42,117 bases of DNA from positions 1 to 42,117 of IMG/VR virus record IMGVR_UViG_3300005805_000163; one strand, 5' to 3'. Position numbers and translations under genes: made by a program. The notes under the pieces were generated by a model, which made no database searches, was not told the DNA's origin, and worked only from the letters and a program-made list of their open reading frames with translations. This stretch comes from a virus (taxonomy: Duplodnaviria; Caudoviricetes). Each line of letters begins with the position of its first letter. Within the stretch, counting starts at the first letter, position 1. Positions 8,228 through 31,236 of the stretch are shown here, piece after piece.

Positions 8228-8256
8228 AGTCTAACATAAAGACAAATTATTGTCAA
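8228..8256 (-). promoter_or_regulatory. sigma70-type promoter for uvsE
   Basis: TTGACA-17-TAGACT with TG upstream of the -10 box. Confidence 0.75.
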
Positions 8257-8273
8257 ACATACGGAAACCGAAC

Positions 8274-9689
8274 ATGAAATACTTAGAATTGATGGAAGGC
8301 GTAGAGCCAAAGCTACCGGGAGCGCCCAAAGGTGTACAAATTATGACACCTCAACAGTTTGTTGCCAAGAGTACCGGGGAAGAAGAACCTGCAGCAGACA
8401 AAGAAGTTGACGAAGGCATGGGTGCTGGAAGGGGATTTGCGGGATATAAAGATGTATTTTTGGGTAAAGAAGCTATTGGTCAATTGACACAAGATGCCGA
8501 CGGTATGTGGGATGCTATTCCATATGATGCTAAATGGCACGGTACATCAATCGGTGGACCTTTCAATTCAAAACAAGAAGCAATCCTTGCACTAAAACAA
8601 CATTATAAGCAGAAAAGCAGCATATCTGAAGCACCAAAATTAGCTGCACCAACTAGACCAATCGGCGAGCCTGAATTAACAGATTACTTGGATCGTATTC
8701 GTAATAGAGAAAAGAAGAAAACAGACAAATACAAATTACCATACATACATCGTAGCAGTGTAGTTGATTACTATAACGAAGAAGGTAAGAAATACAATAT
8801 AGATGCCATCAAGTCGGCATTAGCAGAAAGACCCAAAGCATTACTGAAGAAAAACGAAAAGATGAAGCACAGTGATGGAGAATTAGAACAGTTCTTCAAT
8901 ATTGGTTTTGCTGCATTGGTTGGTATAGCACTTGATGAACAAACTAATGAACTAATCATAGTAAACACCTGCCCAGGCGCTGGCAGTTGTAAAATAGATT
9001 GCTTTGCTATGAAAGGCGGTAAAGTACAATTCCAAGGTCCATGGCTAAGTGATGGTCGAATACTGACATATTTGTTAAATGACCCAGAAGGTTTCTTCAA
9101 TCAATTAAAAGCAGAAATTAGCAAAGAAGAACTAAAAGGTAAAAAAGGTGGGTACAGTGTAAGTATACGCTGGCATGATGCAGGAGATTTCTTTAGCCCT
9201 GAATATGCAGAAATGGCGTTTAAGTTAGCAGAGTCACTACCTAATGTAGATTTCTATGCATACACTAAAGTGGCTGATGTTGCATTAGGCAAAAAGCCAG
9301 AAAACTTTATCATCAACTGGAGCGAAGGTGCTAGCGCCGGACAGGAGAAGAAAGTAAAAGCACAAGATCCTGAGCTAGAAACAACTAAGAATAGCAGAAT
9401 TGTTCCTAGCGATTTATTCTATGACTTGTTAGTGAAGGACGAAAAGAAAAATCTTGTTAAGGGTCCAGAAGGCCAATGGCAAGTGATACCTGATAAGATC
9501 CCTGAACTAAAACAAAGATTGGCAAGTGCCTACAATATTAGCCCGAGTAGCATTCTTACATATGATGAATGGGATACCAGAGGTAAGAAAAATAATATGA
9601 TGAAGTGGAATGTGATTATCACTCCCGGCGAACCTGACTTAACCGCAAAAGACCCGGGTGTACTCAGCACATTATTGCTAAAACACTAA
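8274..9689 (+). CDS. Gp88-like (radical-SAM-related) domain protein with modular N-terminus
   Basis: TCPGAGSCKIDCFA, IRWHDAGDFFS, FYAYTK are Gp88-family motifs; ATG 8274 after CGGA preferred to TTG 8250. Confidence 0.7.
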   Translation: MKYLELMEGVEPKLPGAPKGVQIMTPQQFVAKSTGEEEPAADKEVDEGMGAGRGFAGYKDVFLGKEAIGQLTQDADGMWDAIPYDAKWHGTSIGGPFNSKQEAILALKQHYKQKSSISEAPKLAAPTRPIGEPELTDYLDRIRNREKKKTDKYKLPYIHRSSVVDYYNEEGKKYNIDAIKSALAERPKALLKKNEKMKHSDGELEQFFNIGFAALVGIALDEQTNELIIVNTCPGAGSCKIDCFAMKGGKVQFQGPWLSDGRILTYLLNDPEGFFNQLKAEISKEELKGKKGGYSVSIRWHDAGDFFSPEYAEMAFKLAESLPNVDFYAYTKVADVALGKKPENFIINWSEGASAGQEKKVKAQDPELETTKNSRIVPSDLFYDLLVKDEKKNLVKGPEGQWQVIPDKIPELKQRLASAYNISPSSILTYDEWDTRGKKNNMMKWNVIITPGEPDLTAKDPGVLSTLLLKH

Positions 9690-9901
9690 CTGTATTTTAA
9701 TACGAACCAACTAGCCATTGGTTCGTTGTAAAAAGTAAACTTAGTTTGTCTAGGTACATCTATCATAGTGCTCCAATCAAACTTTCCCGTGGAGTACTCG
9801 AAATCAAAATCAATGTGTACTCTATACCCTAAATCTTTTAATTCAGACACAATTTCGCTGATTTGATTGCTAGATTTATGTTGGATGATAACCTCAACCA
9901 T
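9686..9901 (-). CDS. hypothetical phage protein
   Basis: 71 aa ORF ending ...ASWFVLKYS, overlapping the epimerase stop. Confidence 0.7.
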   Translation of the reverse strand: MVEVIIQHKSSNQISEIVSELKDLGYRVHIDFDFEYSTGKFDWSTMIDVPRQTKFTFYNEPMASWFVLKYS

Positions 9902-10724
9902 TTACTTTTAGTAAATCTTTTATTGTGTACAGATTCTTCATATATGGTGAAACATCTTCCAACACATAATATTCAATATCACCTTGCCGTCTTGGACCAT
10001 AGGTGACATTGATATCACAATTGTTCACTTCTTCAAACAATCTTACCATTTCTTTAACTGTATATCCTACACCATGTCCCAAACATTCGACATTATTTGC
10101 AGGCCTTTCTATAGCCAATTTAATAGAATGACACACTTCTTCTACATGCAAATAATCTCGGACACAAGTTCCATCGCTAGTATTTGGATAGTCTTTACCA
10201 TAGATAGTAAATTCTCCAGTCTCACGTGCCTTGTTTAAGTTATAAAACAATCCGTCTGCGTTAGTGGGCATTACAACCGTAGAACCTATAACATTATAGA
10301 ACCTGAAAATAGTATATTCAGCACCTGACATTTTAGTGTATGCACGAACTACATCTTCAGCACCACGTTTACTAACACCATATGCACTTAAACAATCTTG
10401 TGCTGCACCTGTACTAGCAAAGATAAAGTTTTTGGTTTTTACTTTGTTTAACACATTCATTGTACCATTCAAATTGGTAATGTAATAACTGATAGGACGT
10501 TCTTCACTTTCACTTACGCTAGTTAACGCTGCCAAATGAACAACTGCATCAAACTCAATACCTTCAATAGAAAATTGTTTGTTAATATCAATTTTGTAAA
10601 ATTTCTCTATTTCAACTTGTGAATCAACAATATCAAGTCCGTGAATTTCATATTCACCGGAGAGCATATTACAAAGATGAGAACCTATGTATCCTGAACT
10701 ACCTGTAATCAAAATCTTTTTCAT
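9894..10724 (-). CDS. galE: NAD-dependent epimerase/dehydratase (UDP-glucose 4-epimerase-like)
   Basis: TGSSGYIG, HLAA, YGVSK, GTCVRDYLHV, RRQGD. Confidence 0.85.
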   Translation of the reverse strand: MKKILITGSSGYIGSHLCNMLSGEYEIHGLDIVDSQVEIEKFYKIDINKQFSIEGIEFDAVVHLAALTSVSESEERPISYYITNLNGTMNVLNKVKTKNFIFASTGAAQDCLSAYGVSKRGAEDVVRAYTKMSGAEYTIFRFYNVIGSTVVMPTNADGLFYNLNKARETGEFTIYGKDYPNTSDGTCVRDYLHVEEVCHSIKLAIERPANNVECLGHGVGYTVKEMVRLFEEVNNCDINVTYGPRRQGDIEYYVLEDVSPYMKNLYTIKDLLKVNG

Positions 10725-12061
10725 TAAATTTCCTCAAAAAGTGATAGCCCTGTAACTTCCTCTGTTGGCTCAAAGGTCGGGTCTTTAGTTAGATATGTAT
10801 CATTATCGGTATAAATGACACGAAATTTATGTTTATTAGTAAGAACACTACGTATGTCATCAATACAAACTATATTACGCTTTAGCCCACGGACGTAATC
10901 TTGTAGCTTTACTGTGGTTTCTGTACAAATTTTTGCTGTATTACTGTTCGATTGTTTAGAACAAAATTCTGAAAAACAATCGTTCCATTTTCCAAACACA
11001 CGCCTTTCCATAAATTGGCCGTGACTCAGCGATTCTACATTGTACCAAGATTCGGCTGTCGGAAATAATTCATACAACTCTTTTGTTCTCTGAGCCATAT
11101 TTTTCTTATTGCATTTGTAAAAGAAATCCTCATTAAAGTTATTAGTCCAACGTTGATTTTCTAATACTAGTGTAGGTAATTGAAGGTGTTGTTCATAGAA
11201 CGCCATACCATAGCTTTCAACTATGCTAGGATTAAATGCTACTCTAGCACTAGTGATGAAGTCTACTTTTTCTTTACCGACAATACTAGCACGAACATCA
11301 TACTTAACCCCGATCTTCTTCAACCGTTCTTCAAACTTTTTAACACCATTTGGGCTAGTCATGACCTTAGCTGGCAGTTTGGTTTGCTCAATCAACTCAA
11401 TGAAAAGTTCAGGATTCTTTCCTTCTTCCCATCGACCAACAAATAATACACCCTCACGTGGCTTGTGATGTTCTAGTAATAAGTCTTGTTCTGTAACAGG
11501 TATAGGAAGATGCCATGCACCATTACTCATTGATACTTGATTGAACTTACTTTGTGTGCCGATCCATAGAGAATTACATTCTAATTGTTTACGCATCATA
11601 TCGTTGGTAGAATGTAAAAAAGGATTTTTAGTGTCTTTAAATATTTGGCTTTCTAGGTGCGTGTAAGCAATAATCTGAATACAATCTTCAAGTCCCATTG
11701 TTAGTGCTACTTGAATGCTTTCATATGTATTACAAACAAAGGCGTCATAGATATTATGTTCCAATGCTTCTACAATTGCATTACGAAAGTTTGCCATACG
11801 TTCATAACAGTATGTATCTCCATACATAAAAATGTTGCTATGGGTAGTATAGGGTAATGATTCCAATGGGGCAATAATGTTTGCCTTCAATGACTTTACA
11901 AATTCATTATCTTTCGGTTCTTTGTCTGTAATGATATCTACTTTGATATTGTGTTCGTCCATTAACTCGCAAAAACTTTTTGCGAACTGACCTATGCCAC
12001 CATGCGGTATTAATGTTTGATAACTTACTAAGAAGCCGACTCTTTTATTATACGTTTTCAT
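10724..12061 (-). CDS. GT-B fold (GT4-like) glycosyltransferase
   Basis: HGGIGQF, LFVGRWEEGKN, ESYGMAFYE (Ex7E). Confidence 0.8.
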   Translation of the reverse strand: MKTYNKRVGFLVSYQTLIPHGGIGQFAKSFCELMDEHNIKVDIITDKEPKDNEFVKSLKANIIAPLESLPYTTHSNIFMYGDTYCYERMANFRNAIVEALEHNIYDAFVCNTYESIQVALTMGLEDCIQIIAYTHLESQIFKDTKNPFLHSTNDMMRKQLECNSLWIGTQSKFNQVSMSNGAWHLPIPVTEQDLLLEHHKPREGVLFVGRWEEGKNPELFIELIEQTKLPAKVMTSPNGVKKFEERLKKIGVKYDVRASIVGKEKVDFITSARVAFNPSIVESYGMAFYEQHLQLPTLVLENQRWTNNFNEDFFYKCNKKNMAQRTKELYELFPTAESWYNVESLSHGQFMERRVFGKWNDCFSEFCSKQSNSNTAKICTETTVKLQDYVRGLKRNIVCIDDIRSVLTNKHKFRVIYTDNDTYLTKDPTFEPTEEVTGLSLFEEI

Positions 12062-12817: not shown

Positions 12818-13002
12818 TACCAATTACTTACATCAGTAATATCGGTTACGATTTTTTTAGGTGTATATTCTATTTTTGTCGTAGGACCTATACCTGATTC
12901 GTGTGTTTCTATGATTGATATTTGATCCACAGTGTCATACATGTCAAACACTTCCTTCAATCTCTCAAATTGCATTCTCGTAATTACTATTTTTATCATC
13001 AT
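12817..13002 (-). CDS. hypothetical phage protein
   Basis: ATGA overlap with queE stop; ends TDITDVSNW. Confidence 0.65.
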   Translation of the reverse strand: MMIKIVITRMQFERLKEVFDMYDTVDQISIIETHESGIGPTTKIEYTPKKIVTDITDVSNW

Positions 13003-13850
13003 GTTCCCCATTCATTTTTAAACAATGGTACTTGAAGTCTATCGCTGTAACGCAGCCCATGTTTCATTGCCATTTTAGCTACTTGCTTGTTATTCATGCT
13101 GTACACTCTTTCAGTACCACCGACCGGCATGACATATACATTACCCATGAAACCATTTTTACGATAGATGTTTACTACGTCTAACACTTCTTCAACATCT
13201 TCATTAGTAGCAATAACAAACTTGAGATAGGTGTGCCCATATAGTTCATATTCACGAACAACTTCAGGACATATTGCATCTTCACGCTTTTCACCGCTAC
13301 TAGAAAGTTTAGCACTAACACTGAAGGTTAACGTTTCAATTCCCTTTTGCTTGTGCCATTGCTTTTGTAAAAACTTTTTGAAATCTTCATGCAATGGTTG
13401 AGTGCCATTTGTCTCAAATGTTAACTCTTTGAGTGCTATCATTTCAGGATAGCTAAGTAGTTCAGGATATGCACGTTGCCAGCCTAGCAATGGTTCCCCA
13501 CCTGTAATTACGAGGTGCTCGTCTACCCAACGCTTATGTGGCAACAGTTCCATAATTTTTACAACAATTTCATCAGTATTGTAGTATGGACTCAAATGTC
13601 GGAAAGCAGGATCCCATGATGCATAACTATCACATCCGCTGCTAACCAATGGCAAAGATTTGTAATCTTTATATGCGGTTATGAATCGTGCAACTCCAAT
13701 TCTTTCTTCGCTCAATTCACCTTTGGGCATACCAAATCCCGCACATTTGAAATTACAACCAAATGTACGAAGGAATACACTGGGTACACCCATATAGCGA
13801 CCTTCGCCTTGAATACTATAAAACAATTCGCTAATTTTTAATTTTTGCAT
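12999..13850 (-). CDS. queE: 7-carboxy-7-deazaguanine synthase (radical SAM)
   Basis: SELFYSIQGEG, FLRTFGCN, ITGGEPLL, FETNGT, SAKL, RLQV..F; ATG 13850 preferred. Confidence 0.92.
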   Translation of the reverse strand: MQKLKISELFYSIQGEGRYMGVPSVFLRTFGCNFKCAGFGMPKGELSEERIGVARFITAYKDYKSLPLVSSGCDSYASWDPAFRHLSPYYNTDEIVVKIMELLPHKRWVDEHLVITGGEPLLGWQRAYPELLSYPEMIALKELTFETNGTQPLHEDFKKFLQKQWHKQKGIETLTFSVSAKLSSSGEKREDAICPEVVREYELYGHTYLKFVIATNEDVEEVLDVVNIYRKNGFMGNVYVMPVGGTERVYSMNNKQVAKMAMKHGLRYSDRLQVPLFKNEWGT

Positions 13851-15019
13851 ATCTGTTCCGTAATGAATTTTGCTGTATAAGGAGCTAATGTCCAACCTAA
13901 GTGCCCGTGTCCTGTATTATAATATACTTTGTTGTTTTTGTCACTAGATTTGGTTATGGGAAGCATGTTCGGAGTCATTGGTCGAAGACATGCCCAACTG
14001 CTGTAATCATGAGCATTAACCATTGGTAGGTTTTTATGCACCCATTGCAATAATGGTTCTATTCTATCCCTACGAATATCATAGTTTTCTCCTGTTAGTT
14101 CAGCAGTGCCTGCGACTCGTAATCGATTACTTAATGTACTAGTAACTATTTTGGCTTGGTCATCTAGCAGACTAACTTTGGGCATGGCTTGATACGATTT
14201 TATATCATTAGCTGTGATAGTGATGCTATAACCCTTAACAGGATATATGTGCAAACGATCACCTATTGACTTAGCAAGATTGACACTATTGTGTCCAGCA
14301 CAAACTACTACCTTATCAAAACAGAGTAGGTAACGTATATCTTCAATTGTCTGAGAAAATACAAAATTAACATTATACCTAAATTCTAATACTTTTTGCA
14401 TCTCATAACAAAACTTATGTATATCACCGGTCCAATCAGACTTGGTATACACTCCACCAACTAAATCAGTCATATAATGTAATGTACTATCCAATGATCT
14501 GATTTGGTTAATGTTTAGTATCTCCCACTCACATTCGGTCTGTCCATATATTGATTGTGACCGCTTAGCCATATCAAAATATTTTTGATCTTTATATACA
14601 TGTAGTATTCCATCATACCTTTGATCAAAATCTATTTTTTCTTCAGTAATTATTTCTTCGTAGAGTTTTCTAGATTCTAAACCCATTCGTATAGTTTCTA
14701 ATGTATTCTTTTCATACTCATTTTTTGCAGTATGATATAAAAATTTAGTTAGCCAAACAATCTTGTCGTATTCTAAACTAGGCCGAATGAGGAGAGGTGC
14801 ATCCTTTTTGAACATCCATTTAATGCCCTTAATAACATTACTCCATGTTGTCCATACTTCACTATTGCTGACGCTCACCTGCCCACCATTGGCATAACTA
14901 CAACGCATGGCAGGGTAATGCTCACTATCGTAAACAGTGACCTTGCACCCTGCCTTAGCCAGATAATATGCAGTTGTAATACCAGAAATTCCGGCACCTA
15001 TAACGGCAACTTTACTCAT
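13838..15019 (-). CDS. dadA: FAD-dependent D-amino acid dehydrogenase-like oxidoreductase
   Basis: GAGISG, SYANGGQ, YPVKGYSIT, LRVAGTAE, LRPMTP, NTGHGHLGWT. Confidence 0.88.
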   Translation of the reverse strand: MSKVAVIGAGISGITTAYYLAKAGCKVTVYDSEHYPAMRCSYANGGQVSVSNSEVWTTWSNVIKGIKWMFKKDAPLLIRPSLEYDKIVWLTKFLYHTAKNEYEKNTLETIRMGLESRKLYEEIITEEKIDFDQRYDGILHVYKDQKYFDMAKRSQSIYGQTECEWEILNINQIRSLDSTLHYMTDLVGGVYTKSDWTGDIHKFCYEMQKVLEFRYNVNFVFSQTIEDIRYLLCFDKVVVCAGHNSVNLAKSIGDRLHIYPVKGYSITITANDIKSYQAMPKVSLLDDQAKIVTSTLSNRLRVAGTAELTGENYDIRRDRIEPLLQWVHKNLPMVNAHDYSSWACLRPMTPNMLPITKSSDKNNKVYYNTGHGHLGWTLAPYTAKFITEQICKN

Positions 15020-15552
15020 ACGTATAAATCTTCATTCCATTCACGATGACCTTCACGGAAAGCCATATTACTTTGCGTTTCACGTACTTCTACACGATAG
15101 CACCAAAGTCTATTGGCTTCATGTTCTCCAAGCATATCAGGAATATACACGGTATTCATATATTTGTAAAGCATATCGGCTAAACCCTCACATCCTAGTC
15201 TGGGAAGTATTGTAAGTTTAGCCAATTTCTTTTCTTGTAATAACTTGAATGTTTCTAACTCTGGATCGTCTTGTGCCACAAGTAATGTATGATCAAATTG
15301 ATCTTCAAGAATTTTCTTAAGTTCTTTTAGTCCACCATAATCCATAGCCCAATTACGAATGTCTAGATTATCAGTCCCGAAATAAAACTTCATACTAAAA
15401 CTATAGCCATGAATCAGATTACAATGACTATCTGCACGCCATTGCCGATATGCACACGGAAATGCATCATGATATTCTTTAGTACTGGTGTACTTGTATT
15501 GGCGAGTGCTGCGCCAAATGTGTGAAGTTTCTTCAATGTTTTGATTTGCCAT
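15016..15552 (-). CDS. queD: 6-carboxytetrahydropterin synthase (QueD/PTPS family)
   Basis: HCNLIHGY, DYGGLK, FDHTLL, GCE, VRET; AAGGAG SD; close to queE. Confidence 0.88.
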   Translation of the reverse strand: MANQNIEETSHIWRSTRQYKYTSTKEYHDAFPCAYRQWRADSHCNLIHGYSFSMKFYFGTDNLDIRNWAMDYGGLKELKKILEDQFDHTLLVAQDDPELETFKLLQEKKLAKLTILPRLGCEGLADMLYKYMNTVYIPDMLGEHEANRLWCYRVEVRETQSNMAFREGHREWNEDLYV

Positions 15553-15586
15553 CTCTAGTCTCCTTTATTTAAAGTAGCAAGTTTGA

Positions 15587-15628
15587 TGACAGCAGAATTT
15601 ATAGAGCGGGATGATGCCAAAGACCGCT
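15587..15628 (-). ncRNA. candidate preQ1-I-like riboswitch aptamer (H-type pseudoknot) in queD leader
   Basis: AGCGG-UCUUUGGCAUCAUC-CCGCU stem-loop, CUAUAAA tail, loop UGGCA complementary to downstream UGUCA. Confidence 0.55.
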
Positions 15629-15632
15629 ATTC

Positions 15633-16487
15633 TCACTTAAGTCCCATTTGTTGACGTATTTTGGTAGCACTAATGCTAGTAATACTTTCATCAAATGTTT
15701 CTTGTTCTATCTTATAGCCTACGTCACGACCATATGTGATGTTTACAATATTTGGAACTACAATAATTTCGTACTGACCTTGATACAGTGGATCTAAGTC
15801 TCGTTTAATATACTCTTTTACTTGTTCTAATGCAAATGGATTGGATCCCTGCCACCCTTGACAGTCACGAATCATGATACATACTTGACCTGTTTTAGCA
15901 ATTGCTCGTTCAAATAATGCACGATGGCCAGGATGCCATGGTTGCCAACGTCCTAACATTTGAACAGTTTCTTTTTGCCAATTGAATGTTGGTCTTCGGC
16001 GATTTTCTAATATATGTTGCCCAACAAACTCTACCCACTTTTCAGCATTTTGTTCAGTGATTCTAAAATCATATACGTCTGGTGGTACAAATGCTTTATT
16101 AGTATCTTCGTAACGACCTTTATCTATGGTATCTATCCATATAGTCCAATCAGCTTTGAAGTTATTACGCATTTCGGGTAATGGTGCTACAAAGTCACAA
16201 ATAACATAATCACCGGTGCATTTAAGTGCAAACTCAAGCATACGCAGACTTTGACGAATTCTACCCTCTTTACTAAAATCCCAGTCATTATATTGTCTAC
16301 GAACATCGTCAGCGTTAAACCAATCTACTTTACTTTTATAGAAAGAAGGAGGTACTTCATATTCTACTAAACGTTCAAAAGGCATAGTGTCAACGCTAGA
16401 AAAATCTTCTAAGTATTTTTTCAAACGTTCTGCGAAATACGTTTTACCTGAACCAGGTAAACCCATTATTAATATTCTCTTAGTCAT
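15633..16487 (-). CDS. APS-kinase-like P-loop domain fused to an HxGH nucleotidyltransferase domain
   Basis: GLPGSGKT, NADDVR, DFSKEGR, DFVAP (CysC-like); MLGRWQPWHPGH, YGRDVGY, ISATKIR. Confidence 0.8.
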   Translation of the reverse strand: MTKRILIMGLPGSGKTYFAERLKKYLEDFSSVDTMPFERLVEYEVPPSFYKSKVDWFNADDVRRQYNDWDFSKEGRIRQSLRMLEFALKCTGDYVICDFVAPLPEMRNNFKADWTIWIDTIDKGRYEDTNKAFVPPDVYDFRITEQNAEKWVEFVGQHILENRRRPTFNWQKETVQMLGRWQPWHPGHRALFERAIAKTGQVCIMIRDCQGWQGSNPFALEQVKEYIKRDLDPLYQGQYEIIVVPNIVNITYGRDVGYKIEQETFDESITSISATKIRQQMGLK

Positions 16488-17438: not shown

Positions 17439-17567
17439 TTACTCCTTTGGTACACAAGTACAATTTCTACCCTGATTGCAATCACCTGTACAACTACTAG
17501 GTGGTAACCTACGAGAAATTGATAACACTACGGCAATCAATAAAATTAATAAAAGAATAGTAATCAT
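17439..17567 (-). CDS. small membrane-anchored Cys-rich peptide (42 aa)
   Basis: Not in track; ATGA-coupled to folE; MITILLLILLIAVVLSISRRLPPSSCTGDCNQGRNCTCVPKE. Confidence 0.7.
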   Translation of the reverse strand: MITILLLILLIAVVLSISRRLPPSSCTGDCNQGRNCTCVPKE

Positions 17568-18244
17568 TTGCATCCTGCCCTTGCTATTTGATAAAATTCA
17601 TTCCTCACTTCTGGATCTGTTTTAAACCCACCGCCTAGTCTTGTCGTTACCGTGCTAGAACCTGTATCTTCTACACCACGACTTTTTACGCAATAATGCT
17701 GTGCGTCAATCATGACTGCAACATCTTCTGTGTCCAAAATAAATTGTAATGTATGAAAAATTTGTTCAGTAAGACGTTCTTGAATTTGTGGACGCTTACT
17801 GAAATATTCTACGATACGATTAATTTTAGATAATCCCAACACTTTGTTCTTAGGCACATATGCAACAGTAGCGGTACCATCAATGATAACAAAGTGATGC
17901 TCGCAATTACTCTGAACATTGACATTCCTTTCAACGACCATTTCATTATATTTCATTTTATTGTCAACTGTTGTACATTTAGGGAACGCATCGTAGTCTA
18001 GTCCCCAAAAGATTTCATTGACATACATCTTAGCAACACGTTTAGGTGTTTCGATAAGACTATCATCAGTTAAGTCTAGTCCTAAGGCCCTCATGATTTC
18101 AGCAAAGTTACCTTCGATGATATCAATCTGTTCCTTACGGTCTAGATTACGTTTTTTGATTGGGGTTTCAACACCCATCTTGACAAGATGTTCATGAACT
18201 TTTTGACCCAATTCTGGATCGGTTTTTGTTTTGTTATACGACAT
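17564..18244 (-). CDS. folE: GTP cyclohydrolase I
   Basis: ETPKRVAKMY, SNCEHHF, GLSKINR, RPQIQERLT, HYCVKSRGV. Confidence 0.97.
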   Translation of the reverse strand: MSYNKTKTDPELGQKVHEHLVKMGVETPIKKRNLDRKEQIDIIEGNFAEIMRALGLDLTDDSLIETPKRVAKMYVNEIFWGLDYDAFPKCTTVDNKMKYNEMVVERNVNVQSNCEHHFVIIDGTATVAYVPKNKVLGLSKINRIVEYFSKRPQIQERLTEQIFHTLQFILDTEDVAVMIDAQHYCVKSRGVEDTGSSTVTTRLGGGFKTDPEVRNEFYQIARAGCK

Positions 18245-18306
18245 ATTTGAATCCTTCCTTACACGGATATTAAATTTGAATTGTTGTCACCGTTGTGTGA
18301 CACAAG

Positions 18307-18314
18307 TATTTATA
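18307..18314 (-). promoter_or_regulatory. T4 late promoter consensus upstream of folE
   Basis: Exact TATAAATA in the intergenic region. Confidence 0.7.
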
Positions 18315-18331
18315 CAAATAAACAGTAATAG

Positions 18332-19135
18332 TTAATTTATATAGCCCTTTTGTTTTAAAAATGGAATAACAACGTAATCCACAAATGCTTTATGCTGTAA
18401 TGTATGCGGGTGTTTAAAATGTCCGAATTCTACCACATCATCCCATGTTTTAGGATCTTGGAATTCTGCACACCAATCATACTCACTTTTTACCGGTAAC
18501 CAATTACCAAAATCGATTTGATCATATAGATACTTTATATCAGGATGATTCATTATCTCAGGTTTATCAGGAAAAGTCGGATAATAGTACTGTGTCATGA
18601 AATACCTAATGTTCTTTTGTTTTAAAAACCATTGAACCCTAAGTATATGTTCTAAGGTTTGCATGAATGCACCAATATCATCATATATGTGCTTATAATA
18701 TATTTTTGAAAGGTCGTCATCCCAATAAGGCATCACTTTGTAGAAGTTCGGCTCTCCACCTACAGTAGCCGGATTCATAGTATTTTGATCTTCATTCCAA
18801 GACCTATGAATCAAATAATAATCGTGTCGAGGCTCGCTTAAATAAATCTCTTGTCTATACGCACCACTCCACATAATACCTACTAAAATTTCTTCGGGTT
18901 TATACGTTTCAAGTGCTTTGATTACTTCGTAAATCGTAGTCCTACTTATAATGCCGTTACCAGAAGCTCCTTTTCCTCGATACTTTGGTAAACAATTTAG
19001 GTGATTAACTAAATGTACAGGCCAAGATAAGGCGTACTTTGTATAGTCATCAATATTAACTTGCGTTGACTCTTGTATTTCAGGTACAGGAACTTCAGTA
19101 AAACTACATCCTGTGGTTATCAAATACTTTATCAT
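18332..19135 (-). CDS. SGNH-hydrolase-like hypothetical protein (GCSF family)
   Basis: GCSFT, SWP, G..N..I, MWS..R, terminal HP..H; paralog of 23069. Confidence 0.5.
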
Positions 19136-20211
19136 TTCAAAAACACATCATTGATTTGACGGTTAACTTTTATAAACGTAGTACACTTACTTAATTGTTT
19201 TAATGTAGGAGCCCCTACATATGTACAGGTGCTACGCAGTCCTCCCAGCAAATCTAAGATAGTATCTTTTACAGGACCTTTAAAAGGTACTCGTACAGTT
19301 CTACCTTCGCTACTGCGATATTCTGCGACTCCGCCGTGATGTTTGTTCATAGCGGTGTCACTACTCATACCATAAAATTCTACAAATTTCTTTTCTTCTA
19401 ACTTTGGTCTGTTACACAATATATCATAACTACTAATAGGATGATCCTCTGTTATGATTTTACCACCACCCTCTATATGTCCCGCAAGCATACCACCCAG
19501 CATAACAAAATCGGCACCAGCACCAAAGGCTTTAGCAACGTCGCCAGGACAAGTGCAACCACCATCAGCGATAATATGTCCGCCAAGGCCATGAGCAGCA
19601 TCGCTACATTCGATGATGGCAGACAATTGCGGATAACCCACACCAGTCTGCAACCTTGTAGTGCATACGCTGCCAGGACCAATGCCCACTTTAACGATAT
19701 CAGCTCCACGTAGTATTAACTCCTGTGTCATATCGGCTGTAACAACATTTCCTGCTATGATTGTATGATTAGGATAAAGTCTACGCACTTCTGCTACGAA
19801 ATCGCCAAAGTGTTCACTATAACCATTTGCTATATCAATGCAAATAAAATGTATTGCAGGGTAATCGTCCAAGATGGCACATAATTTGTTTAAGTCTTTT
19901 TCACTAGTACCTGTACTTACTGCAAAATAATTACCGCCTATATCTTGCAATGTAGTTTCAAAATATTCGGTACCGATATTCTTTACTAGACAGGTAAACA
20001 TACGATGTTTGTACAACTCATTTGCCATTTGCAATGTGCCGACCCCATCCATATTACTAGCCATGATGGGAATTCCTGTCCATTCCCATTTACTATGCTT
20101 AAACTTATATGTGCGTTTTAAGTCAACTTCCTTTCGACTAGCTAGGGTACTTCTTTTTGGTCTAATCAATACATCTTTGAAGTCTAACTTAACATCTTCT
20201 TCGATACGCAT
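19132..20211 (-). CDS. guaC: GMP reductase
   Basis: [53 protein letters not shown]. Confidence 0.96.
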
Positions 20212-20412: not shown

Positions 20413-21588
20413 TTAATATTTGGCTTCACGTGTGTGTTTGCGATAGTCTTTAGACATACGTAAGTATTGTTCTCCCTTACCTTCAAGAATATCACAAATT
20501 CTATCAATCGTGCCATTATTGTAAGAACTTATCTTACCAATATTAGCATGAGGTTTCTTCAATAAATGTTCTAGCTTGGTCAGTGCATCTTCTATAGACC
20601 AAGGCACATACATTCTTTCATGATCATTCGCAAAAGTTTCAGGGAATGACCTATATGCAGGATACAAAACGTTACATCCTAATGCGTCCCCTTCGCTTAC
20701 TGTGTTACTTACCCAATCTTGTAATGCACAATTGAATACTACCTTACTGTTGCTAAGTATTTCATAATATTCATTTTTTTCTAAATCTTCGTAAATCACC
20801 AACTTGCCTTCATCTTGAAATTTACGAGTTCTAACCATATAACTATCATTGTTACTTCGTAGTTTTCCGCCGCTACAAACGCAAAATACTACATCGTTGT
20901 TAGGATGACGCTTATACCAAGCATCAATTAAATCCATATAAAAGTCTGGTTGTTTTTCTTGATCCCATCGTGCAGAAAACACTACACGATTTCGCCTGTT
21001 ATGAAATGGTGCAATTTTGTCTACTCGGTTGATAACTTCGCTTTTGCCAAATGCTAGCCCACTAATATTGTATATAGGAGCAGTCCATCCAGCAATACGC
21101 ATATGAGCAACCATTTCTTCGTTCGTGGCGAGAATTCCATCCACGAACTCATTAACCAATTTTTCGTAGTGTCCCATCCATGTCGCCATACCCCATACAT
21201 GCACAAAATCATCAGGATCAATGGACTGAGCAAGACAGCGAACAAAGACGCGGGGACGTAGATTACTAGGGACTTGATTAAGTATGTAAGGTAAACTTTC
21301 GATACCGGGTTGAAACATGTCCTCAAAGTATATAACATCTTCACTTGTAACTTCTCCTTGCTGCATTAATTTTACTAAATTCATCATTTGGCTCATACTA
21401 AAATAGCTGCGCCCATGTGCATCTAACACTTGACCTACTACAATTTTTTGTTGATTGTCAAGTGTTGATCCCTGTACATATGTTACATCATACTTTCTCT
21501 TTTCAAAAACAGCTTTATTCCATTCTGTTAATTGCAGTGTGTATCTCGCTTTGTAGGATTCTAATCCCATGTAATATAATTTACGCAT
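20413..21588 (-). CDS. GT-B fold glycosyltransferase
   Basis: VVFSARWDQEKQPDF, QDWVSNTVSE, YP.YRSFPE nucleotide-sugar binding half. Confidence 0.75.
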   Translation of the reverse strand: MRKLYYMGLESYKARYTLQLTEWNKAVFEKRKYDVTYVQGSTLDNQQKIVVGQVLDAHGRSYFSMSQMMNLVKLMQQGEVTSEDVIYFEDMFQPGIESLPYILNQVPSNLRPRVFVRCLAQSIDPDDFVHVWGMATWMGHYEKLVNEFVDGILATNEEMVAHMRIAGWTAPIYNISGLAFGKSEVINRVDKIAPFHNRRNRVVFSARWDQEKQPDFYMDLIDAWYKRHPNNDVVFCVCSGGKLRSNNDSYMVRTRKFQDEGKLVIYEDLEKNEYYEILSNSKVVFNCALQDWVSNTVSEGDALGCNVLYPAYRSFPETFANDHERMYVPWSIEDALTKLEHLLKKPHANIGKISSYNNGTIDRICDILEGKGEQYLRMSKDYRKHTREAKY

Positions 21589-22351
21589 TTCGCCTTTCTA
21601 TATCCTCTTCTATACATTGTTCCCCATGTTGAACTTCAAGTATATGACAATATTCATCATAGTTATTTTGGCATTGATGCCAAACCCCTTGCCCAATATC
21701 ATAGGTTTCGTTTGTGTGTTTACTAATTGTTATTTTACTACCTTTGTAATCAGTTGCAATATCACATTTACCCTTAAGTATATACCAATGTTCGCTACGC
21801 ATAAAATGACGTTGCATACTTAAACTTTTACCCGGTTCGATAACTAATTCTTTAACTTTGTACCCGGGCTTATCATCCAATACTCTATACCATCCCCATG
21901 GTCTTTTGTATTTTGGATTTTTCCATTCTTCTAATATCCAACTTGAACTATTCTTTTTGTTGCTACCACCTACACCAAATTTGAATGTTAGATTTTTATC
22001 CATAACACTCATTTCGGGAATGTTAGCCGCTGTTCTATCGCCACCGTTAGCAAAAATTATTTCTGCGTCAGGATACATTTGCCGTACATTTTTTATTGCT
22101 TCTATACTTGAACCATCATCGTCATTATACAATATACAATGATCCACCATATATAAGTTTTCGACAATACTTTGTCGCTCATGAAATGGCATAAAAGGTT
22201 GGCCCTTTTTACGGGCCAACCATGCATCAGAATTAAGTCCTACAACTAATATATCACCTAATTCTTTTGCTGCTTTGAAATACTCAATGTGACCGGAGTG
22301 AATCGGATCGAATCCTCCGGTCACAAGTACAATTTTACTCGGTCTTTGCAT
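21581..22351 (-). CDS. cytidylyltransferase fused to a mannose-6-phosphate isomerase type II cupin
   Basis: TGGFDPIHSGH, FANGGDR; RPWGWY, LSMQRH..RSEHW, EVQHG..C.EEDIER. Confidence 0.85.
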   Translation of the reverse strand: MQRPSKIVLVTGGFDPIHSGHIEYFKAAKELGDILVVGLNSDAWLARKKGQPFMPFHERQSIVENLYMVDHCILYNDDDGSSIEAIKNVRQMYPDAEIIFANGGDRTAANIPEMSVMDKNLTFKFGVGGSNKKNSSSWILEEWKNPKYKRPWGWYRVLDDKPGYKVKELVIEPGKSLSMQRHFMRSEHWYILKGKCDIATDYKGSKITISKHTNETYDIGQGVWHQCQNNYDEYCHILEVQHGEQCIEEDIERRNA

Positions 22352-22555: not shown

Positions 22556-23023
22556 TTAAACGGCGAGTTGTTGATAAGGTTGATGTGTTTTATAAGAAAT
22601 TGTGGCACCGTTCTCACCATCTTCACTGACGGTAATCTCAATGTCACGCCCTGGATAACGACTAGCGATTTGTTCATAAAGGTCATCACTAATCATTTCG
22701 CAGCTTTTATAATCTAGCGACAATACACCTTGTGCGCCAGAATACAATTGTTCAAGCCACCGCTTGAATTGAATGAACTCCACATCTCTGTCGTTATGCC
22801 AAACTTGTATAGCAACAGTAAAGTGAAAAATATGCCTATGAGGGAAACCCAAAAACGAAACGTCATACATATCTCCTGTTTTAAGTGACGGATCTTCTGC
22901 CGCCGCTGGGTATTTATGAATACCTTCTTTGCGAAAGGTTACCCAAATCATTCTAGTTGCTTTATCACGAATGCGTTCACGTTTCATTTTAAGTTCAGTT
23001 TCACGTTGTTGGTTCATAATCAT
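22556..23023 (-). CDS. dpdL: QueD-paralog T-fold protein, DpdL-like
   Basis: EGIH.YP, LGFPHRHIF (LxxxHRHxF), SCEM, VSEDGENG; deazaguanine gene context; motif assignment is from memory of the family. Confidence 0.65.
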   Translation of the reverse strand: MIMNQQRETELKMKRERIRDKATRMIWVTFRKEGIHKYPAAAEDPSLKTGDMYDVSFLGFPHRHIFHFTVAIQVWHNDRDVEFIQFKRWLEQLYSGAQGVLSLDYKSCEMISDDLYEQIASRYPGRDIEITVSEDGENGATISYKTHQPYQQLAV

Positions 23024-24109: not shown

Positions 24110-25663
24110 TTATTCTCCTAATACATCTGCCATAGCATCGTCACTATCAATGATTTCTTCATCGACTTCTGGTTCACCTTGAACCTCAAACATTTGATCA
24201 AACATCGTCATAGCATTGACTAATTTTTTGCCACTGATACCTTGACTGCCACTTTGCATTTGAGTCCATAGACTTGAGTGAGATTTTATCAATGCCTTAC
24301 TACTATCTCTGTCTTTAAGACTGAAAATTTCATCAATGATATCTCCAAAATGATAGTTATCAAAACGATTCATAATCATTTTAGGCATGATACCTTTCTC
24401 GTATTTACGATTAGCCTCTTGTACAGCAACAATGTGTTGATATACATTATGACTTTGTAGTAAGGTATAACTAAGTGTATCCCAGCTAGTCTTTGTTTCC
24501 TTACCATGTTGTCCAATAAATCCATGACCACGGTAACATAAATCTTTCATAACCATTTTATCAGTTACTGGGCTATTAGTAAAAACACTATGTATATTGT
24601 CTTGTAGCACAGCTAATTGAAACGGTCTGTTGTCTGTTGCATAGTTTTTATTTTCAGCAGTTTTTTCCATCTGATAAGACCATTTCTTACCATGTTCAAA
24701 ACTGTTATTGAAGTATGCCAGACCTTTAGCCGCACTAAAGAATGGACTAGCACAGTCAAATGTAATTTGCAACTTTGGATTATGATATTTGCGTATAGCT
24801 TTTTGTATATCAGTAAACAACAGTGCATATTCTAAGATACTAACACCAAGACAGTGTACTAAATCATGTTTGCCTTCTTGTAGTAAGCCATCATGTATGA
24901 TATCTACAAAACGATTTAGCATTAACTCTACATCGATTTTGTTCTGACCACCGAATGCCCAGCCGTTGAAATGATTGTCGGGATAGATATTGGGATCACA
25001 GTATTTTTTCATCTCTGCATACCAATCATCACTTTGTTTGTGATTACGTCCTTGCAATACATTTAAAAACTTGCACTTGCCACTGCGATTCTTGATAAAG
25101 TAATCATTATTAATATGTGTAGCTGCAATGGCTTCTTCAATTGTACTGATACCGTGTGCTGATTTACCCGTCTTAGGGTCTTTGATATGAAACGTAGTAA
25201 GTGATTGACTTGGAATATCTAGACACATACCATAATCCATGTATGTATCCATCCATGTCAATACTTCTTTACGCTTTTTCATAGCACGTGGGCAATTAAT
25301 ATCTTTCCAATCAGCGGGCCATTGACATTTAAGAATCTGAAAGCCACCACTATCACCTAACATAAACGTGCCAGCTTCACGCTCACGTATAATGCTTTCA
25401 TTTGGATCGTTCTTTGTTACATCTAAGTTGGCATGTCCTGCACTATACAGACCCCACTTGTATGTGTAAAGACCTTGCTTGCTGTTTAGAAAGTTAAGAC
25501 ATTCAACATCACCGTTAAAGCCGGCAGGAATCCGAGACTTTTCAAAGTACTCCTCTCCTTTACGTTGTTTGCCTAATCCACTAATATAAAAACTAGACAC
25601 TGCTGGTAAAAACAGTGCCCAATCAGGATTATGTTTTTGTGAAAGATTATCTTGTTCTATCAT
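24110..25663 (-). CDS. dpdA: TGT-family 7-deazaguanine DNA transglycosylase (DpdA-like)
   Basis: GDSGGFQ, LDIP, NVLQG, GWAFGG, HCLG, TFDCAS TGT-fold motifs; located between replication genes and the folE/queD/queE cluster. Confidence 0.8.
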   Translation of the reverse strand: MIEQDNLSQKHNPDWALFLPAVSSFYISGLGKQRKGEEYFEKSRIPAGFNGDVECLNFLNSKQGLYTYKWGLYSAGHANLDVTKNDPNESIIREREAGTFMLGDSGGFQILKCQWPADWKDINCPRAMKKRKEVLTWMDTYMDYGMCLDIPSQSLTTFHIKDPKTGKSAHGISTIEEAIAATHINNDYFIKNRSGKCKFLNVLQGRNHKQSDDWYAEMKKYCDPNIYPDNHFNGWAFGGQNKIDVELMLNRFVDIIHDGLLQEGKHDLVHCLGVSILEYALLFTDIQKAIRKYHNPKLQITFDCASPFFSAAKGLAYFNNSFEHGKKWSYQMEKTAENKNYATDNRPFQLAVLQDNIHSVFTNSPVTDKMVMKDLCYRGHGFIGQHGKETKTSWDTLSYTLLQSHNVYQHIVAVQEANRKYEKGIMPKMIMNRFDNYHFGDIIDEIFSLKDRDSSKALIKSHSSLWTQMQSGSQGISGKKLVNAMTMFDQMFEVQGEPEVDEEIIDSDDAMADVLGE

Positions 25664-30633: not shown

Positions 30634-30662
30634 ATTATATATCTATCAGAGTTGTTTTTCAA
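30634..30662 (-). promoter_or_regulatory. sigma70-type promoter
   Basis: TTGAAA-17-TATAAT. Confidence 0.7.
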
Positions 30663-31236
30663 CAATTCTTTTTACCGTTTTATGCAATCCTGGATTGACA
30701 TGTAATGCATGCGGCATTAGTTGTTTACGGATGTAGTTTCTGGTATAGCAGACATCATCGTTACTAGTATCATGATACCAATCAACATTCTTACGCTCAC
30801 ACCAATCAATAAATTCACGTTTGGGTGTGGTAAGGAAGGGTCGTAAAATCTTTTTGCGAATGAATGGAATAACTTTGGGCTTGCCATGTAAGGCACTCCA
30901 AATATATGTTTCTACACAATCATCCAAATGATGGCATGTAATAACAGGACCCAATTGGTCTAGAAAGTCGTAGCGTTCTCTACGCCAATATTCTTCCATA
31001 CTTTCATTCTTGCCACGTTCACTTCTGCACGTGCCAAAAAGCATTGGTAAGTTGCGATCAGTGCAGAATTTAGCAACGAACTCCATTGCACGTTCACCGT
31101 TATCAGTTTTGTGGTGAAAGTAAGCACAGGTTACATCATGTTTTTTGGATAAGAAATCAACGACGGCAACACTGTCTACACCACCACTAAATGCGACGGT
31201 AACGTTTTTTGGCAATGGAAAGAGTAGTTTAATCAT
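30646..31236 (-). CDS. tilS: tRNA(Ile)-lysidine synthetase-like PP-loop ATPase (N-terminal domain only)
   Basis: SGGVDS, R..RY.F, HHLDDCVET, RPFL, DTSN, YTRNYIR. Confidence 0.8.
   Translation of the reverse strand: MIKLLFPLPKNVTVAFSGGVDSVAVVDFLSKKHDVTCAYFHHKTDNGERAMEFVAKFCTDRNLPMLFGTCRSERGKNESMEEYWRRERYDFLDQLGPVITCHHLDDCVETYIWSALHGKPKVIPFIRKKILRPFLTTPKREFIDWCERKNVDWYHDTSNDDVCYTRNYIRKQLMPHALHVNPGLHKTVKRIVEKQL

Follow-up and report, generated by a model that had tools for sequence, protein, structure and literature searches.

A covarying pseudoknot upstream of queD in uncultured phage-like contigs is an uncatalogued riboswitch candidate with predicted ON wiring

By published accounts, riboswitches are a rarity in phages, and those presented in PMC9004378 belong to a class that is also known from bacteria. 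For que genes, the nearest described element is the preQ1-I riboswitch, which, as summarized in PMC11625349, is a small H-type pseudoknot with a 5-bp P1, a G-C top pair, a C, in many cases UC, ahead of the P1 3′ strand and an A-rich L3, located before a que gene; all of the type I–III examples in Table 1 of that review repress. THF-II, as described in PMC6800512 and PMC9881143, is a bulged hairpin found upstream of folE in Rhizobiales, where it acts as an OFF switch. In its pocket, according to the same sources, an invariant C and a U are opposed between two stacked helices, and the RNA binds THF, BH4, dihydroneopterin, and 7-deazaguanine. On the metabolic side, the DpdL-type dDG system of Cellulophaga phage phiST consists, in the account of PMC10516641, of FolE, QueD, QueE, DpdL, and DpdA, without QueC. 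The phages described here have a corresponding gene set, with DpdL-like and DpdA-like members and again without detectable QueC. No RNA control element is mentioned for phiST in the available part of PMC10516641.

The stretch of DNA that we analyzed (the window, 42,117 nt) is a 42-kb piece of the virus record of an uncultured giant phage, with 36% GC and 12% completeness (CheckV). It contains a family B polymerase, and its genes lie mostly on the minus strand; the sole long plus-strand ORF (8250–9689, +), which carries a GP88 domain, sits amid minus-strand genes. The queD leader is an 80-nt gap on the minus strand between the stop of the ORF at 15633–16487 and the queD ATG (15552), and the upstream stop ends 4 nt before the first helix of the element, P1. 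A previous reading of the sequence alone had singled out this gap as unusually long for an otherwise overlapping operon. Its length and the overlap of the neighboring genes hold, but the window has other gaps of 78–92 nt, one of 87 nt ahead of folE among them, and the gap length alone is therefore unremarkable. The pathway genes of the window are as follows.

12999–13895, minus strand: queE-like radical SAM gene; the start is probably a later ATG
13838–15019, minus strand: D-amino-acid dehydrogenase-like FAD enzyme, located between queD and queE; overlaps queD, probably co-transcribed with it, and present in 7 of 80 related loci
15016–15552, minus strand: queD-like 6-carboxytetrahydropterin synthase (PF01242, phrog_2389, CxxxHGY), the putative regulated gene
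17564–18244, minus strand: folE, GTP cyclohydrolase I (NF006824, above cut-off)
22556–23023, minus strand: DpdL-like QueD paralogue (LxxxHRHxF, signature as given in the available part of PMC10516641), proposed CDG decarboxylase family
24110–25663, minus strand: DpdA-like transglycosylase candidate (DSGGFQ; top five fold matches are TGTs, weak)

The product of the ORF at 22556–23023 is 35% identical to a phiST protein. For the ORF at 24110–25663, the five best fold matches are all tRNA-guanine transglycosylases, at weak significance (E ~1e-3; model pLDDT 59), and its DSGGFQ motif is a TGT signature; the nearest cultured relatives of this protein are found in Pseudomonas jumbo phages such as PA5oct (33%). 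DpdL-like and DpdA-like genes are each present in 18 of 20 large related records and in 3/3 near-complete ones, one DpdA-like match being a short piece at a record end, and FolE is present in all five related records checked. In five relatives (G003, G012, G014, G016, G020), the match to the DpdA-like protein is split in two although the reading frame stays open throughout, which corresponds to an in-frame insertion near residue 125. The absence of QueC and QueF asserted from the window extends to its relatives: QueC exceeds the TIGR00364 cut-off in 0 of the 20 large records, and QueF was found in 0 of 5. Weak QueC-family matches were set aside, as they cover ~50–70 positions and fall below the TIGR00364 cut-off, one of them passing the Pfam cut-off, but over no more than the N-terminal 65 positions. 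A weak QueC-like PHROG match traces to a stand-alone TilS N-terminal domain at 30646–31236 (−). By the scheme in the available part of PMC10516641, the phage gene set predicts 7-deazaguanine in the phage DNA, a step that we infer. Host QueC and QueF could supply preQ0 and preQ1, so the absence of these genes from the phage is compatible with either compound as a ligand.

The elements of the leader, read on the minus strand, are listed below; L1–L3 denote the loops, and counts refer to distinct leaders or aptamers.

15634–15639, minus strand: TAAGTG, one mismatch to the late-promoter-like TAA[AG]TA box, 5 nt before P1 (modal spacing of the family) and overlapping the upstream stop codon; putative promoter
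15624–15628, minus strand: P1 5′ strand AGCGG
15620–15623, minus strand: L1; position 1 variable, position 2 C (44/45), position 3 U (44/45)
15615–15619, minus strand: P2a 5′ strand UGGCA
15614, minus strand: invariant U facing C15592 (45/45 protein-first leaders); candidate ligand pocket
15612–15613, minus strand: P2b 5′ strand CA (CG where the 3′ side carries CG)
15610–15611, minus strand: L2 UC, its last C invariant and at the position of the preQ1-I specificity base
15605–15609, minus strand: P1 3′ strand CCGCU
15595–15604, minus strand: L3 CUAUAAAUUC (family WUAYAAAYUC)
15593–15594, minus strand: P2b 3′ strand UG
15592, minus strand: near-invariant C opposite U15614 (44/45)
15585–15591, minus strand: switching strand UGUCAUC, modelled either as the P2a 3′ strand (15591–15587) or as the partner of the start-codon region
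15560–15564, minus strand: Shine-Dalgarno (SD) AGGAG
15547–15553, minus strand: GAUGGCA, which in the predicted OFF fold pairs with the switching strand and covers the AUG

Several parts of this layout had been read correctly from the letters: P1 (AGCGG/CCGCU, ending GG/CC), the loop UCUUUGGCAUCAUC, the UAUAAA tail, and an SD ~20 nt beyond the pseudoknot (22 nt past P2). The proposed P2, UGGCA (15619–15615) with UGUCA (15591–15587), does pair, but its extent was underestimated. P2 consists of a P2a of 4–5 bp, an almost invariant U·C opposition, and a P2b of 2 bp in which CA/UG interchanges with CG/CG. An H-type fold with a split P2 and L1 contacts in the major groove is also known from SAM-II, which buries the SD in P2, and the T-even gene 32 operator is a phage leader pseudoknot that controls translation, as the queD motif may. 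The conserved bases and gene context of the SAM-II, SAM-V, and gene 32 pseudoknots are unlike those of the queD motif. An HDV-like ribozyme topology was rejected by inspection against the HDV architecture as generally known, with only 2 nt between P2 and P1′. The 80-mer alone folds no better than its shuffles (z 0.64, in ViennaRNA, which cannot model pseudoknots and so scores nested alternatives only); proof of the fold thus rests on comparison.

For this comparison, a QueD protein search supplied 594 related viral loci, of which the best 80 were retained. In the parser applied to them, P1 had to be perfect, and the final C of L2, C[AG], [CU]G, and AWWYUC had to be present; no condition was set on the U·C bases, L1, or P2a, nor on whether the two P2b strands agree. 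It recognized the motif in 76 of the 80 protein-first loci, in 45 distinct versions. Among the four misses, one locus (L030) has the motif by covariance model (44 bits), one (L052) lacks the 5′ part, one (L021) begins inside the motif, and one (L076) is without it. Damaged copies occur as well, such as L052:60–127, which has lost the P1 5′ strand, and L009:3908–3950, which lacks the conserved C. In a MAFFT alignment of 46 distinct leaders, made blind to structure, 89% of the cells are paired (P1, 100%), and two-sided changes occur in 9 of 12 pairs. P1 and P2 covary across these homologous leaders: the covariation score is 0.351, compared with 0.120 after shuffling, a test inflated by relatedness, and at most 0.104 for slid partners. 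P1 appears as AGCGG/CCGCU, UGCGG/CCGCA, ACCGG/CCGGU, AGUGG/CCACU, and AGAGG/CCUCU. The first P2a pair takes all four Watson-Crick types and is paired in 113 of 129 distinct aptamers, and P2b is CA/UG in 122/129 and CG/CG in 7/129, with no mixed case. The U·C opposition between P2a and P2b is never repaired to a pair while the adjacent pairs vary (U in 45/45 and C in 44/45 of the protein-first leaders). On a tree of 130 QueD proteins, changes in paired columns are joint (P1, 11/11, 5/5, and 5/5; P2b, 4/4; first P2a pair, 47/50 steps). However, the fit between this tree and the leaders is poor (33 steps, against 41 after shuffling), so that parsimony steps overcount independent events, and a score of 1.0 was also reached by one pair of control columns; the result shows the direction of paired change rather than a count of events. 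Together, the alignments show a conserved, covarying H-type pseudoknot (P1; P2a, U·C, P2b) in the queD 5′ leader.

The motif is closely tied to QueD. In a scan of viral contigs, a QueD homologue follows immediately after 113 of 120 matches and is the second gene after three more, with four not placed. Nearly the same pattern was scanned in bacterial contigs, and four features outside the pattern (the outer P1 pair, P2b agreement, at least 3/4 P2a pairs, and C at L1 position 2) occur together in 110/120 viral vs 0/120 bacterial matches. All 120 bacterial matches are chance-like, and none is near QueD; as they came from 11 of 64 parts of the genome scan, the absence applies to that sample and that pattern. 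Among metagenome contigs, 65 of 120 matches passed a slightly laxer filter, 60 of them with QueD downstream, as had 9 of the 55 that failed. The QueD proteins downstream of the motif diverge to 28% identity (26/130 below 50%). Each of 20 large records holds one strong copy (44–68 bits; next best 23), and second-tier model matches in two genomes (23.4 and 21.5 bits) proved to be partial matches rather than copies. We estimate about 1,100 stored viral stretches with the motif. Against cultured phages, blastn with the leader returned short chance matches only, the queD leaders of ACP17, X1, Phosso, and PhiXhv-15 are without the motif, and searching the full records of five cultured phages (PA5oct, Phosso, ACP17, X1, PhiXhv-15) with the motif model gave nothing strong (best 15.9 bits). 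The motif was thus seen only in uncultured, phage-like contigs and is apparently phage-restricted. Four loci (L075, L128, L134, L140) have additional genes between the motif and queD, which by eye resemble methyltransferases or cupins and would fall under its control. The covered parts of the literature do not describe the motif, which may stand unnamed in supplements: a term search found queD absent from the main texts of bioRxiv 10.64898/2026.10.21.760802 and PMC5737381 and from six supplement files of PMC10690425, and other supplements could hold it unnamed. A covarying structure 5′ of a metabolically coherent gene, one general mark of a riboswitch, is present here, and the element is an uncatalogued riboswitch candidate whose fold and placement before queD are real.

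Besides its part in the pseudoknot, the P2 3′ strand starts a helix with the region of the ribosome-binding site (RBS). At least three versions of this helix recur: CCUAUG/CAUAGG over the SD (class A), GUCAUC/GAUGGC over the AUG (class B, which includes the window), and CCAUUG/CAAUGG (class E). In 156 of 158 platforms, it has 6 bp or more. A different alternative helix had been suggested, GGUCUUU (15625–15619) with GGAGACU over the SD; it is possible in the window, but it reaches at least 6 bp in only 19/158 platforms and was therefore discarded as a conserved alternative. Blocking the P2 3′ strand lowers the median modelled cost of opening the RBS from 7.8 to 4.2 kcal/mol, with a drop of more than 1 kcal/mol in 144/158 platforms, and in 145/158 the RBS is hidden better by the native strand than by shuffled versions of it. 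Consistent with a constraint on the sequence itself, AUGGC is kept in 53/54 start-covering platforms (classes B and E) vs 40/97 of class A, among sequences that are related. In the window, the modelled cost falls only from 9.9 to 7.1 kcal/mol, with a substitute hairpin still covering the start when P2 is formed, and because this hairpin persists, the modelled range of the switch is modest. By these models and the sequence constraint, a mutually exclusive expression platform is present. Since the P2 3′ strand doubles as the anti-RBS strand, formation of the pseudoknot is predicted to switch translation ON.

These data bear directly on the initial assignment to the preQ1-I class. The H-type layout, the G-C pair at the P1 floor (46/46 alignment rows), the C just before the P1 3′ strand (invariant in the same 46 rows), the L2 UC (35 of 45 distinct leaders), and the A-rich L3 all agree with it, but membership does not follow. 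Rfam returned no match at gathering threshold in the window or in 15 related loci, and no preQ1 family at E ≤ 10 on 15300–15900. The equivalent of U6 is not conserved (L1 position 1 is U in 25, C in 16, and A in 4, and position 2 is C in 44/45), and the L1 of the motif starts N-C-U rather than with U (UU in types I and III), as given in PMC11625349. The equivalent of A30 is likewise missing: L3 ends in an invariant UC in the 46-leader alignment (the parser set required YUC), not in the A of the class as presented in that review. P2 has 6–7 bp and is split by the U·C opposition, with the 2-bp P2b as an additional segment, and its 3′ strand is the anti-RBS strand with a predicted ON sign, opposite to the repressing logic of preQ1-I. 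In addition, the motif is found only in uncultured phage contigs. A divergent preQ1-I riboswitch, with preQ1/preQ0 or CDG/7-deazaguanine as its ligand at the P1/P2 junction and ordinary feedback repression as the outcome, would draw on the shared bases and the queD context. It conflicts with the lost U6 and A30 equivalents, the missing Rfam match, the modelled sign, and phages without QueC and QueF, and we regard it as very improbable. The motif would act like a small pseudoknot riboswitch but is not classed as preQ1-I.

Upstream of P1, promoter-like boxes are enriched. Of 170 distinct upstream regions, 101 have a TAA[AG]TA box within 14 nt of P1 (shuffled mean 11, max 22), most often 5, 8, or 11 nt away, 48 have a −10-like hexamer there (shuffled mean 22; peak 7 nt), and 135 have a promoter-like box, vs a shuffled mean of 32. 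The TAA[AG]TA box resembles the T4 late promoter, TATAAAT (PMC9004378). From these positions, we infer that the transcript starts at P1, from a promoter-like box just upstream. In three RNA runs, with small shares and short contigs mostly of relatives for which strand and start are not resolvable, one relative's contig spans the platform and a variant of the motif. A ligand-free timing switch could exploit this arrangement: transcripts from the proximal promoter would fold the pseudoknot (ON), and on read-through transcripts, ribosomes ending at the upstream stop would melt it (OFF). The boxes 5–11 nt before P1 and the upstream stop that abuts P1 in the window suit such a switch, yet it leaves the destabilizing U·C mismatch of 44–45/45 leaders unexplained, the P2 duplex is weak on its own (−4.0 kcal/mol before loop costs), and many leaders have no abutting upstream gene. 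We therefore consider this timing mechanism improbable.

Class A platforms, the commonest (97/158), carry a σ70-like promoter inside the element, with −35 boxes TTTACA (50) or TATACA (35), spacers of 17 (67) or 18 nt (26), and −10 boxes TATAAT (44) or TAAAAT (28). In L004:332–400, for example, TTTACA-17-TATAAT with an extended TG is written into L3 and the loop of the anti-SD hairpin. Judged from sequence, such internal promoters would give early transcripts that bypass the switch. They also raise the question of whether conservation reflects DNA, through overlapping promoters or operator palindromes, rather than RNA structure. To this explanation we give next to no credence, since DNA binding does not account for the interleaved two-sided changes and the retention of G·U pairs, and the window's class B lacks an internal σ70-like promoter yet keeps the core.

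Our preferred reading, to which we assign a probability of about 0.6 on the strength of comparison and modelling, is a metabolite-stabilized translational ON riboswitch in the queD leader. In this model, without P2 the switching strand would pair over the SD or the AUG (in the window, UGUCAUC with GAUGGCA) and keep translation OFF, and with P2 formed the RBS would be easier to open. P2 would be marginal alone, and the ligand would lock it by pairing with the Watson-Crick face of the invariant C and, through its N1/N8 or N3/N9 edge, with the U; this pocket is modelled on the C22-ligand-U44 triple in the available accounts of THF-II, and the CU of L1 may add major-groove contacts. The queD motif resembles THF-II (PMC6800512, PMC9881143) in having a C and a U opposed between two helices, a likeness at the level of secondary structure, and in its predicted control of a pterin-pathway gene. 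In contrast to THF-II, with its RBS-in-P1 bulged hairpin, the motif is a pseudoknot upstream of queD with predicted ON wiring, and it shows no Rfam match or sequence similarity. The U·C opposition is read as the pocket because the mismatch is kept while every adjacent pair drifts. A second candidate pocket, formed by the L2 C with the L3 UC at the P1/P2 junction, is equally conserved, which makes the assignment to U·C a guess, and the conserved unpaired bases may equally serve a protein or tertiary packing.

It is at QueD that dihydroneopterin triphosphate first leaves folate synthesis for the presumed 7-deazaguanine DNA-modification route (FolE→QueD→QueE→DpdL→DpdA). An ON switch responding to H2NTP or to the pool of reduced pterins would let the phage tap this supply only in times of pterin surplus. 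The predicted ON sign argues against end-product feedback by CDG or 7-deazaguanine and for an upstream, substrate-type or pterin-sufficiency signal. The ligand would be a compound with a guanine-like face. Given an ON riboswitch, a reduced pterin, most likely the pterin substrate of QueD, is our leading guess, at somewhat less than even odds. Guanine or GTP on the one hand and CDG, 7-deazaguanine, preQ0, or preQ1 on the other appear clearly less probable and equal to each other, and another ligand would take the small remaining share.

The folE leaders of the same phages carry conserved structures of their own, of two unrelated types (F1 and F2); that of the window is given here.

18245–18314, minus strand: folE leader type F1; late-promoter box TATAAATA, covarying hairpin stem closing ACACAAMGGU, and a second hairpin over the SD; no Rfam match

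Type F1 consists of two hairpins in tandem, and 63 of its 120 matches are followed by folE. Other lineages (L487–L606, e.g., L488, L495, L503, L540) have F2, a 27-nt mini-pseudoknot of the form GNC-AUCCWC-GNC-NNUAACUC-GGAG, for which folE was detected downstream in 78 of 120 matches (40 loci had short flanks). The three inner stem positions of F2 are paired in 61–62 of 65 distinct matches, with two-sided changes, and its loop UCC can pair with the SD, giving a predicted OFF wiring. F2 shares the L2 WC and the L3 AAYUC with the queD motif. In the fetched flanks of the 76 protein-first loci, F2 occurs in 14, F1 in 16, and both in none.

A shared RNA-binding regulator could explain these folE structures, which brings in a protein-bound translational operator as an alternative for the queD leader as well. 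Here, the pseudoknot would be the site for a phage protein (QueD, another T-fold enzyme, or a RegA/gp32-like protein) that shifts the balance between pseudoknot and anti-RBS helix. RegA/gp32-like regulators are precedents for phage translational operators, and the single copy per genome, at a single gene, and the invariant loop bases fit readout by a protein. However, the motif is kept before QueD proteins as divergent as those described above, its conserved bases cluster within the modelled helical core, and autorepression predicts an OFF wiring where the model says ON. A protein operator is less likely than the metabolite switch but a serious rival, and it deserves more weight than the timing switch.

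Returning to the metabolite-stabilized ON riboswitch, the opposite predicted wiring of F2 and the queD motif, on the producer and the consumer of H2NTP, suggests a valve. In its boldest form, which rests on these models and which we hold to be a rather unlikely, speculative extension, the motif would be a riboswitch class that arose in jumbo phages and is confined to them, and the first dihydroneopterin triphosphate sensor. It would turn queD ON while its F2 sister pseudoknot turns folE OFF in response to the same signal, and this RNA valve would split the host GTP/pterin flux between folate and phage DNA hypermodification. If true, phages would have evolved a metabolite sensor of their own, timing anti-restriction DNA modification against the folate needs of the host. 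The queD motif is abundant, has been seen only in phage-like contigs, and is predicted to be wired opposite to its nearest look-alike. At ~45 nt, it could also be developed into a biosensor that reports an unstable intermediate, either a pterin or a deazapurine.

Further genes of the window touch on nucleotide and sugar metabolism. A GMP reductase above the NCBIfam cut-off is encoded at 19132–20211 (−). On either side of the deazaguanine genes, at 9894–12061 and 20413–22351 (−), lie an epimerase, two glycosyltransferase-like genes, and a nucleotidyltransferase/mannose-6-phosphate isomerase fusion; sugar decoration of the modified base by this epimerase/glycosyltransferase-like cluster is possible.
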